Shown: positions 36,699 to 39,600 of the stretch, one piece after another
How positions within the stretch are numbered: the first letter of the stretch is position 1
How the letters are laid out: each line of letters opens with the position of its first letter
Assembly (NCBI RefSeq): GCF_013167455.1
Contig: NZ_CP038328.1
DNA: 64,000 nucleotides
Source: Escherichia coli O157:H7
Lineage (GTDB): Bacteria > Pseudomonadota > Gammaproteobacteria > Enterobacterales > Enterobacteriaceae
Direction: 5' to 3' (one strand)
Made by a program: the position numbers

Positions 36699-39600
36699 TA
36701 ATGAGGGACGTATTTGTATTAGTCGCGACTTGATCTGACACATGGCCTTGAAAGGTTGAGAGTTACCGGTTTTGATATGAGTGTCGAATCCTTATCCAAA
36801 ACAAGAGGTAACTCTCATGCTTCATACTGCCAATCCCGTCATCAAACACAAAGCCGGTTTGCTCAATCTGGCTGAAGAACTCAGCAACGTATCAAAAGCC
36901 TGTAAAATCATGGGCGTTTCGCGTGATACGTTTTATCGTTACCGCGAACTGGTCGCTGAAGGCGGTGTGGATGCGCAGATTAATCGTAGTCGCCGCGCTC
37001 CTAACCTTAAGAACCGTACCGATGAGGCAACTGAACAGGCTGTTGTTGATTACGCCGTCGCTTTCCCGACACATGGTCAGCACCGGGCCAGCAACGAACT
37101 GCGTAAACAGGGGGTTTTTATCTCCGACAGTGGTGTCCGTTCTGTCTGGTTACTCCATAACCTTGAGAATCTCAAAAGACGATACTGAACAAATTTTATC
37201 AGGTGACGTTCCGTAAAAAGTTGTATGGAGTTCTCGATGCAGTCGGCGCGACTATCAGTACCCCCGCTGAACCCTGGACTATCGGGCCGCCGTACTGGGG
37301 CATGTCACCCTGGCGTGCCGCTGGTTTTCCGCTAATGGTTTATTTCCTCTTTCTTTCCCGGCAAGAATTTATTTTAATCCGGAAGGATTATTTATTTTCA
37401 GATAGGGACTCACATTAAACACGTAACATTTTAATTAATGCATGGCTGAATATGTATTACACAATGTCAGATATCGTAAAAGACCAGTGCAATTCTATGT
37501 AAACTCTCTGACTGTTCATTTTATTTGTTGTTTCAGGGTCGGAACTCACCCTCAATAAACAACTGAATACGAGTAGATATTCATCGTCTGAGCTATATGG
37601 CTTTACACAATAGCCGACATGTCTTTTCTCAGTCAGGAATTTTACTTTTCCTCACTACGAAGTTGACGACTTCGATATGGGATAGACTCTTAATTCAAGC
37701 AATTACTCTGCACAAGCATCAGGCAATCCAGCTCCAATATTTGTTATAAAATAATGCGTAACATTAATTTCACCAACAAAAAAAGGTTTACACCATCCCC
37801 TTGCCCTGGTATCTTACCATATTTACACCACACTTTTTTTGTATCTGGATCATTCTTTGATACGATTTTCGCCACTTGTTCCCTGGCCCTCACTGTCAAT
37901 GTTTTCTTAAACCTCCCCCCATCATCATTTGTTAGGGAAAAATAAGAAAAAAATAATCATCTTCTACATTTGTGTATATTGATATATCCACCGCTACGTG
38001 CGGAAAAAAATCTGGGAGCCATGTAAAAACTCCATCATTTTCTGGTATTGCCATATAGTTTATGTAATGTTTACTTACAAGAGATTCATCTTTGTATAAA
38101 TAAAGATAAGTAATTACGCATAAAACAACAATGATTATAATAGCAATAATAAATATTATCATCTTTGATAGATTACTTGAGATAGCCAGCATCTTGTAAA
38201 GCCTTTATCGTTTCTTTATGCTCTGGATTAATATAATCACTACATCTATCTGAGCAATCTGTTGTTGATGGACATGTCAACCCATGGTCATTTACAGCCA
38301 AGTCTTTTTTATTATCTTCAATCATTTCAGAATGGGATAGCTTTACTTTTCTGCCGTACATACCGAACAGATTTAACCCGTAATCTCTAATCTCTTTTTC
38401 ATAACCCAGCCCTTTCGCCGATCGGCTAACACCAGCGTCATTTAATTTAGACACTCGACAAAATGCCATACAATGGAAAAATTGATCAGTCCCACCTAAA
38501 TTTAATCTCTTCATATCTTCATAAGTATCAGATAATATATCCCATGCTCTTTGATGGTTTAGTTGATCTTTTCTTCTTATTAGCGCTACATCTGCGGGAC
38601 TTAACCCTAATGGATCAATACCATTCACCGGATTCAGCGGATACGCATACAGACTCCATCCCCCCTCCAGCCCTATCGGGTCCTGAGTGATATACCGCCC
38701 CTGCAACGGATCGTAGTACCGGTTCCGGTTGTAGTACAGCCCCGACTCCTTATCATACTGCTGCCCCGGCAGCCGGTACGGCTGGTGCAGGTGATGCGGG
38801 TTCTCCTCATTCAGCTGGTTGCCCCATTCATCATACTCCCCGCTCCACGCCGTATTGCCGTCTTCGCTGATGAGCGCCAGCGGCAGGCCCCGGTGGTCGC
38901 AGTGGTAAAGATGAACTTTTCTCGCCGGTGTGTATTCCGGCTCCACCTGTCTGGCCAGTTGCTCCACCGTCAGCCCGCACTGCGCAAGCCACGCCCGGCT
39001 TTCACTGCTCACGCGGTCTGCCCGGATTTCTTCCTCCAGTCTGTCCAGCAGCCGCACCAGTTCAGCCGGAAATACCACACCGTGCCCGTCCTCGCTCCCT
39101 TCCTGCTGCAGCTTCTCCGCCAGGCTGCGGCGCTGCGCTTTCTCCCGCTCACCGTTGTCTGTTTCGATGCGGATGAGCGGCGCGAAGCTTCCCGGCTCGT
39201 ATACCGTCTGGATACGCGTGGTGTCGGTCTGTACCGTCGTCAGCCGGTCGCCGTCCCACCCGTACCACGTCACCTCCGGTTTCCGCGACAGCGACATCCA
39301 TCCCGTCAGGTCACGCCCGCGACGCCACACCCGTTTCCCCGTCCGGCGGCCCAGCGGGTCGTAGAGGTAGCGGCTCTCGACCAGTGGCTCGCCATGCTGT
39401 ATCCGCGTGTAGAACACCAGGCGGTGCTGGCTGTCGTAGTGGTAGTGGTGGGTCCGCTCGTCGTCCGTCCGTATCACACCCGCCGGGATGCGGTCCGTCT
39501 TCTCCGTCAGCCTGCCGTATTCATCGTGTCGGTAGACATAGTGCGCATCCTCCGCGATGCGGTTATCCGGCCACGCCGTGAGCGTGCTGTCCGGGTGTAG

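Follow-up and report, generated by a model that had tools for sequence, protein, structure and literature searches.

A short ORF lies between mnmH and the remnants of rhs genes in Escherichia coli O157:H7, and it raises the question of what it is: a stand-alone DNA-binding protein, the surviving end of an insertion sequence (IS) that carried the neighboring rhs genes, or simply the debris of an element that has decayed. A preliminary description had taken it for the N-terminus of an IS481-like transposase and for the mark of a past recombination event. The prototype of the IS481 family is IS481 of Bordetella pertussis, and the Rhs elements of E. coli are known from the work of Hill and co-workers. 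The analysis covered a 64,000-nucleotide stretch of DNA around the locus, referred to throughout as the window. The ORF is ylbG, a known and long-annotated pseudogene of E. coli whose anatomy is refined here, and it is a fragment, not a functional member, of the IS481 family. With high confidence, it can be regarded as the immobile, decayed left end of such an IS, with the history proposed below.

Identity of the ORF

The 135-codon ORF noticed earlier is real and runs from a GTG at 36781 to a TGA at 37186-37188, with its true start corrected here to the ATG at 36817. The gene of the intact relatives starts at the ATG equivalent to this position, and the first 12 codons of the longer ORF are therefore IS leader; a ribosome-binding site, AAGAGG (36803-36808), lies 8 nt upstream of the ATG. 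RefSeq annotates the stretch as the pseudogene ylbG (36817-37182), 'helix-turn-helix domain-containing protein; incomplete; missing C-terminus'. On one side, the neighbor is mnmH (35607-36701), and on the other a short minus-strand pseudogene, followed by ybbD and an rhs core gene. Positions 36600-37700 of the window matched O157:H7 genomes without a difference (100% identity) and K-12 derivatives at 99.8% identity. The locus is the same as that of ylbG (b0502) in E. coli K-12, with the same neighbors (mnmH, the rhs N-terminal pseudogene and ybbD), and differs from it by one synonymous change (E94) within ylbG and by the tip arrangement of the adjoining rhs gene.

The product of the ORF matched the Pfam domain HTH_29 over its complete length (72.9 bits against a cut-off of 28.1; E = 2e-20) and the NCBIfam IS481 transposase model NF033577 over model positions 2-112 of 284 (89.4 bits; E = 3e-25). 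The latter score stays below the curated full-length cut-off of 224 bits only because the protein is truncated. A Pfam search of the product detected no rve or integrase core catalytic domain. Over 122 residues, ylbG shared 92% amino-acid identity with transposases of 346 aa encoded by 1201-bp elements, which bears out the proposal that it is an IS481-like N-terminus deprived of its catalytic domain, the rve core having been deleted. The preliminary description had also considered that the ORF might be conserved elsewhere as a full-length, non-mobile regulator; no such homologue was seen among those found, the close ones all being 346-aa IS481 transposases or pieces of them.

Intact Relatives of the Element

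Relatives were found by tblastn and megablast on plasmids of Escherichia albertii and E. coli (including IncF plasmids) and on E. coli chromosomes. The intact element, exemplified by the copy on E. albertii pEA13_3 (L008), is 1201 bp long with 26-bp terminal inverted repeats, the left one being TGTATTAGTCGCGACTTGATCTGACA (2399-2424 in L008) and the right one TGTCAGATCAGGTCTGAGCTAATACA (3574-3599). Two chromosomal copies were flanked by 7-bp target duplications, ATTAAGG (L011) and ATTTACA (L012). The 346-aa transposases scored 293 and 287 bits against NF033577, above its cut-off, and contained the domains rve (aa 162-267) and rve_3 (aa 256-326).

Two sublineages of the element, designated A and B, occurred in E. 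coli and E. albertii. They were about 12% apart (87.5-87.9% identical overall) and had identical 30-bp termini. Many copies were themselves frameshifted, and fragments of the element adjoined genes for virulence or defense, cnf1 and the gene of an ATP-dependent nuclease among them. Three PLSDB 'plasmid' records (NZ_CP069916.1, NZ_OL790696.1, and CP099174.1) also contained a sequence 100% identical to chromosomal ylbG. They include a 'Klebsiella oxytoca plasmid' of 19 kb and entries of 1.3 and 4.8 Mb; mislabelling, or contamination with chromosomal DNA of E. coli, is the probable explanation.

Anatomy of the Relic

The relic extends from 36715 to about 37241 (527 bp; Table 1), and nothing past IS nt 999 is present. 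It begins 13 bp past the stop codon of mnmH with a perfect left terminal inverted repeat. This sequence occurs only once in the window, without any mismatch, where 0 matches were expected by chance. Full-length copies in other genomes likewise aligned from base 36715 on (query position 116). The repeat is followed by the leader, the ribosome-binding site and the first 122 codons of the transposase gene. This left segment was 95.7% identical to the E. albertii copy L008 and 95.3% to L011, both of sublineage A, and only 85.5% identical to sublineage B (L014 and L020).

Table 1. Coordinates of the relic, of the adjoining rhs sequences, and of reference copies of the element (window positions unless a locus is named).
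Feature	Position	Strand	Remarks
Left terminal inverted repeat (IRL)	36715..36740	+	26 bp, TGTATTAGTCGCGACTTGATCTGACA; identical to IRL of intact copies
Left IS segment	36715..37181	+	IS nt 1-467: repeat, leader, ribosome-binding site, transposase codons 1-122; sublineage A
Leader stem-loop	36752..36822	+	Arms 36752-36767 and 36807-36822, 88% complementary; conserved in intact copies
ylbG pseudogene ORF	36817..37188	+	123 codons + TGA; HTH (HTH_29) DNA-binding N-terminus of transposase
Joint 1	37176..37181		Imperfect 6-bp microhomology AAGACG; IS nt 467 to nt 931
C-terminal-region piece	37173..37241	+	69 bp, IS nt 931-999, codons ~277-299, ...KTILNKFYQVTFRKKLYGVLD; out of frame with ylbG; sublineage B
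rhs N-terminal fragment	37240..37336	-	Codons 1-32; start ATG changed to ATT; cut at 3' side by joint 2; incomplete pseudogene in RefSeq
Whole rhs island	36715..42792		~6.1 kb; replaces mnmH/ybbP intergenic region; IS relic at mnmH-proximal end
1201-bp copies, sublineage A	L008 2399-3599; L011 1501-2701
1201-bp copies, sublineage B	L014 1571-2771; L020 1071-2271

At joint 1, 463 bp (IS nt 468-930) are missing, corresponding to codons 123 to about 276 and thus to the DDE/rve core. The two BLAST segments overlapped at 37173-37181, and the joint was placed by base-level comparison with the parental sequences. It is out of frame, so that the reading frame shifts and ylbG terminates in TAC-TGA (TGA at 37186). 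The piece of 69 bp beyond the joint comes from the C-terminal region of the transposase gene (tblastn E = 2e-9) and was 94.2% identical to L014 and L020, of sublineage B, and 81.2% identical to copies of sublineage A. Divergence from lineage A was uneven along the relic (Fisher test, p = 6e-5), and the relic is a chimera of two sublineages. A simple internal deletion in one known element was considered and does not fully account for this structure, since the two segments match different sublineages (95.7 and 81% for A, 85.5 and 94.2% for B). Either the ancestor was a mosaic element that later lost an internal stretch, or a deletion fused a copy of A to a copy of B lying in direct orientation.

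The right inverted repeat was absent from the whole 64-kb window, even with up to 3 mismatches allowed. The one hit in searches for direct repeats resembling a target duplication around the relic was a 13-nt sequence present twice (36640 and 37212), which has no relation to the ends of the IS. As the right end and its flank have been deleted, no target duplication can exist in the window. Compared with the intact elements of E. coli and E. albertii, the relic has kept an identical left repeat, the leader stem-loop and the winged-HTH N-terminus, and has lost the 463 bp of the DDE core and the last 202 bp including the right repeat. It cannot transpose, having no catalytic domain and only one end. 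The earlier reading of the ORF as a recombination scar is thus upheld and given a physical basis: two illegitimate joints, at 37176-37181 and about 37241, and a missing right repeat.

The rhs Fragment and the Borders of the Island

Joint 2 lies at about 37241, with an ambiguity of 2-4 bp; IS homology stops at 37241, and homology to rhs stops at 37240. What follows on the minus strand is the 5' end of an rhs gene, in which the conserved N-terminus is kept and everything after codon 32, including the YD-repeat core, is missing. Compared with the resident rhs gene (codons 1-32, 42369 to 42273), the stub had a nucleotide identity of 79.4% and agreed in 26 of 32 residues; its identity to the 5' portions of other rhs genes from E. 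coli was 75-82%. These matches to other rhs genes were the best obtained, with no closer relative or intact copy of the gene from which the stub derives. As the stub has its own start codon and upstream region and lies downstream of ybbD, we infer that this place was formerly occupied by a second, complete rhs gene. Typical rhs orphans of E. coli are C-terminal core-plus-tip fragments generated by C-terminal displacement, whereas this stub is a 5' fragment left by a deletion and joined to IS DNA.

The rhsD locus corresponds to 'locus 3', between ybbA and ybbB (Jackson et al., 2009, PMC2935791). What the relic has in common with Rhs elements of E. coli and their displaced orphan fragments is that it lies within the island of the rhsD locus and adjoins an rhs gene fragment. 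The borders of this island, 36714/36715 and 42792/42793, were set by three alleles with an empty site. In a BLAST comparison of one of them (L005) with the window, homology stopped at 36703 and restarted at 42793, at the stop codon of ybbP; by eye, weaker flank homology ran on to 36714 in L005, L009, and L010 (GGCGGTATT vs GGGACGTATT). The outer end of the IS left repeat is thus the left border of the island. The preliminary description was right to place the ORF between mnmH and the rhs remnants, but the relic is not beside the rhs locus; it belongs to the island and forms its edge. The suggestion that the scar had shaped the rhs accessory region also held, with joint 2 cutting an rhs gene at codon 32 and the IS left end forming the island border.

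Two forms of the empty site were recognized. In the first, mnmH and ybbP are about 130 bp apart with a REP-type palindrome between them (L009 5103-5242 and L010 5103-5232), and in the second, they are separated by about 700 bp containing an annotated dinQ-like type I toxin gene (L005 7105-7807). The existence of at least two forms suggests that the gap between the convergent genes mnmH and ybbP is a recurrent insertion spot.

Several further features of the island were observed. Within 38173-42369, the rhs core is fused directly to a tip that is an orphan (ylbH) in K-12, and K-12's own rhsD tip with ybbC, about 1 kb (K-12 locus L004 9253-10227), is absent from the window. Identity to K-12 was 94.6% in the rhs core and 99.6% in the distal part including ylbG, and the two alignments overlapped by 221 bp (38630-38850) in the repeated end of the core, as expected for recombination between core repeats. 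The gene ybbD (37703-38194, minus strand), which comes immediately after the rhs toxin tip and presumably confers immunity to it, is disrupted: compared with strain PEC1021, where YbbD is intact (163 aa), single bases have been deleted from T-runs at two places, one of the two deletions being common to K-12. The tip of the full-length resident rhs gene accordingly has a frameshifted cognate ORF downstream. Neither the rhs tip nor intact YbbD had a Pfam match above threshold. The non-coding DNA that separates ybbD from the rhs stub (37385-37567) was 86% identical to part of the RhsE element at the yncG-pptA locus of strain AJ5 (L019 7001-7185), where it sits between ISAs1 (H-rpt) copies.

Distribution and the Origin of the Island

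Among 5,426 complete E. coli genomes, the junction of mnmH with the left repeat was found in 2,906, the stretch with both deletion joints in 2,744, and the right junction of the island in 2,890. A full-length IS was present elsewhere in the genome in 73. A query combining the end of mnmH with the full IS did not reveal mnmH joined to an intact IS in any of the 5,426 genomes (best coverage 92%, the IS alone), and no intermediate state of the deletions occurred among the genomes searched. The near-equal junction counts imply that relic and island go back to one ancestral arrangement and have since been passed on together.

This constant association of island and relic, together with the exact coincidence of the outer end of the left repeat and the left border of the 6.1-kb island, is also what might be seen if an IS481 element had brought in or mobilized the rhs island, by composite or one-ended transposition, and the relic were the surviving end of the vehicle. 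We consider this highly improbable. Neither a second IS end nor a sequence resembling the right repeat occurs in the 64-kb window, including the ybbP border, and the right border of the island, at the stop codon of ybbP, is devoid of IS sequence. The illegitimate joint between IS and rhs lies inside both sequences, which is the signature of a deletion, not of transposition. Furthermore, this IS is lacking where rhs islands occupy other loci, of which there are many (Jackson et al., 2009, PMC2935791).

Expression, Selection and Possible Function

The leader of the relic contains a stem-loop with a predicted folding energy of -25.7 kcal/mol for the RNA (z = -3.2 relative to shuffles), and its 3' arm overlaps both the ATG and the last bases of the ribosome-binding site. 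By analogy with the leaders of other ISs, this structure probably damps translation of transcripts reading through from mnmH. A scan for promoters and terminators between 36500 and 38200 gave no more hits than shuffled sequence.

Across six alleles, 4 of the substitutions in the ylbG coding sequence were nonsynonymous and 1 was synonymous, and a single 1-bp deletion caused a frameshift; the density of variants was 1.6% in ylbG versus 1.9% in the adjacent non-coding DNA. Alleles of ylbG that were frameshifted or interrupted by IS3 were found in further strains, while the 123-codon ORF was still open in most genomes. Relative to intact transposases, pN/pS was 0.55-0.6 on the basis of 15-17 differences, a comparison that includes the time spent as a live transposase gene. 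Within the locus, the variation looks neutral and points to decay, in a small sample of six alleles.

YlbG was listed in older annotations of K-12 as a 'DNA-binding transcriptional regulator', and its domestication as an expressed, stand-alone HTH protein that binds DNA, and that may repress incoming IS481-family elements at their inverted repeats or regulate neighboring genes, has to be weighed against decay. Truncated transposase derivatives are known to inhibit transposition in other elements, as in IS1 InsA, IS911 OrfA, and Tn5 Inh, and like these, ylbG encodes the DNA-binding N-terminus of a transposase without the catalytic domain. By analogy with IS1 InsA and IS911 OrfA, an inhibitory role could be imagined for YlbG, the more so as its ORF is intact over 123 codons and has a good ribosome-binding site, with AAGAGG 8 nt from the ATG, its HTH_29 domain is complete, it has been kept in about 2,900 genomes, and its pN/pS against intact copies is below one. 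Nevertheless, InsA, OrfA, and Inh are made by design from live elements, whereas the truncation of ylbG is an accidental deletion and its stop codon an accident of the out-of-frame joint. The density of variants is hardly distinguishable from that of the flanking non-coding DNA, so that conservation is not higher in ylbG, and the excess of nonsynonymous over synonymous changes and the disrupted alleles go in the same direction. A possible target, a full-length copy of the element, is available in only 73 of the 5,426 genomes, the stem-loop covers the translation start, and RefSeq treats ylbG as a pseudogene. The purifying selection that would characterize a stand-alone HTH regulator was not seen for ylbG in this small sample of alleles, nor were full-length non-mobile homologues seen among the close homologues found. 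Domestication is thus very unlikely.

A particular form of this idea is that the 123-aa YlbG is still made and binds the 26-bp ends of incoming IS481-family elements, acting as an 'IS immunity' factor fixed in the chromosome. Such a role seems extremely doubtful; if true, it could help explain why a full-length copy is carried by about 1% of complete genomes and the relic by about half. No functional study of ylbG was found in the literature, where it appeared only in gene lists and in landing-pad uses.

Proposed History and Significance

Decay of an IS481-family element therefore remains the preferred reading, and the following history, the order of which we infer, would account for the structure observed. 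The IS would have entered the intergenic region of mnmH and ybbP at a point 13 bp past the stop codon of mnmH, with its transposase gene reading away from mnmH. An illegitimate deletion at a microhomology, either in one mosaic element or between copies of A and B, would then have joined IS nt 467 to nt 931, stripping the DDE core and shifting the frame so that the HTH N-terminus ends after 123 codons. A second deletion would have joined IS nt 999 to codon 32 of a distal rhs gene in the neighboring rhs island. Lost in this event would have been the right end of the IS with its repeat, whatever target duplication existed, what was left of the intergenic DNA, and nearly the whole of that rhs gene. 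The relic has since been handed down in about half of E. coli as a constant component of the island.

As an ordinary decay product, ylbG is of small significance beyond its accurate annotation. The ybbD-ylbG interval has been used as a neutral landing pad in K-12, and the neutral-looking state of ylbG supports the common use of this interval as a neutral integration site. For a pseudogene already known from K-12 and O157, the analysis provides a base-level account that comprises the IS end, both joints, the sublineage chimera and the fusion to the rhs 5' stub. It also shows that the rhsD island is bordered on the side of mnmH by an IS end, and that another rhs gene has probably been lost there, a small but concrete data point on how rhs islands are trimmed.
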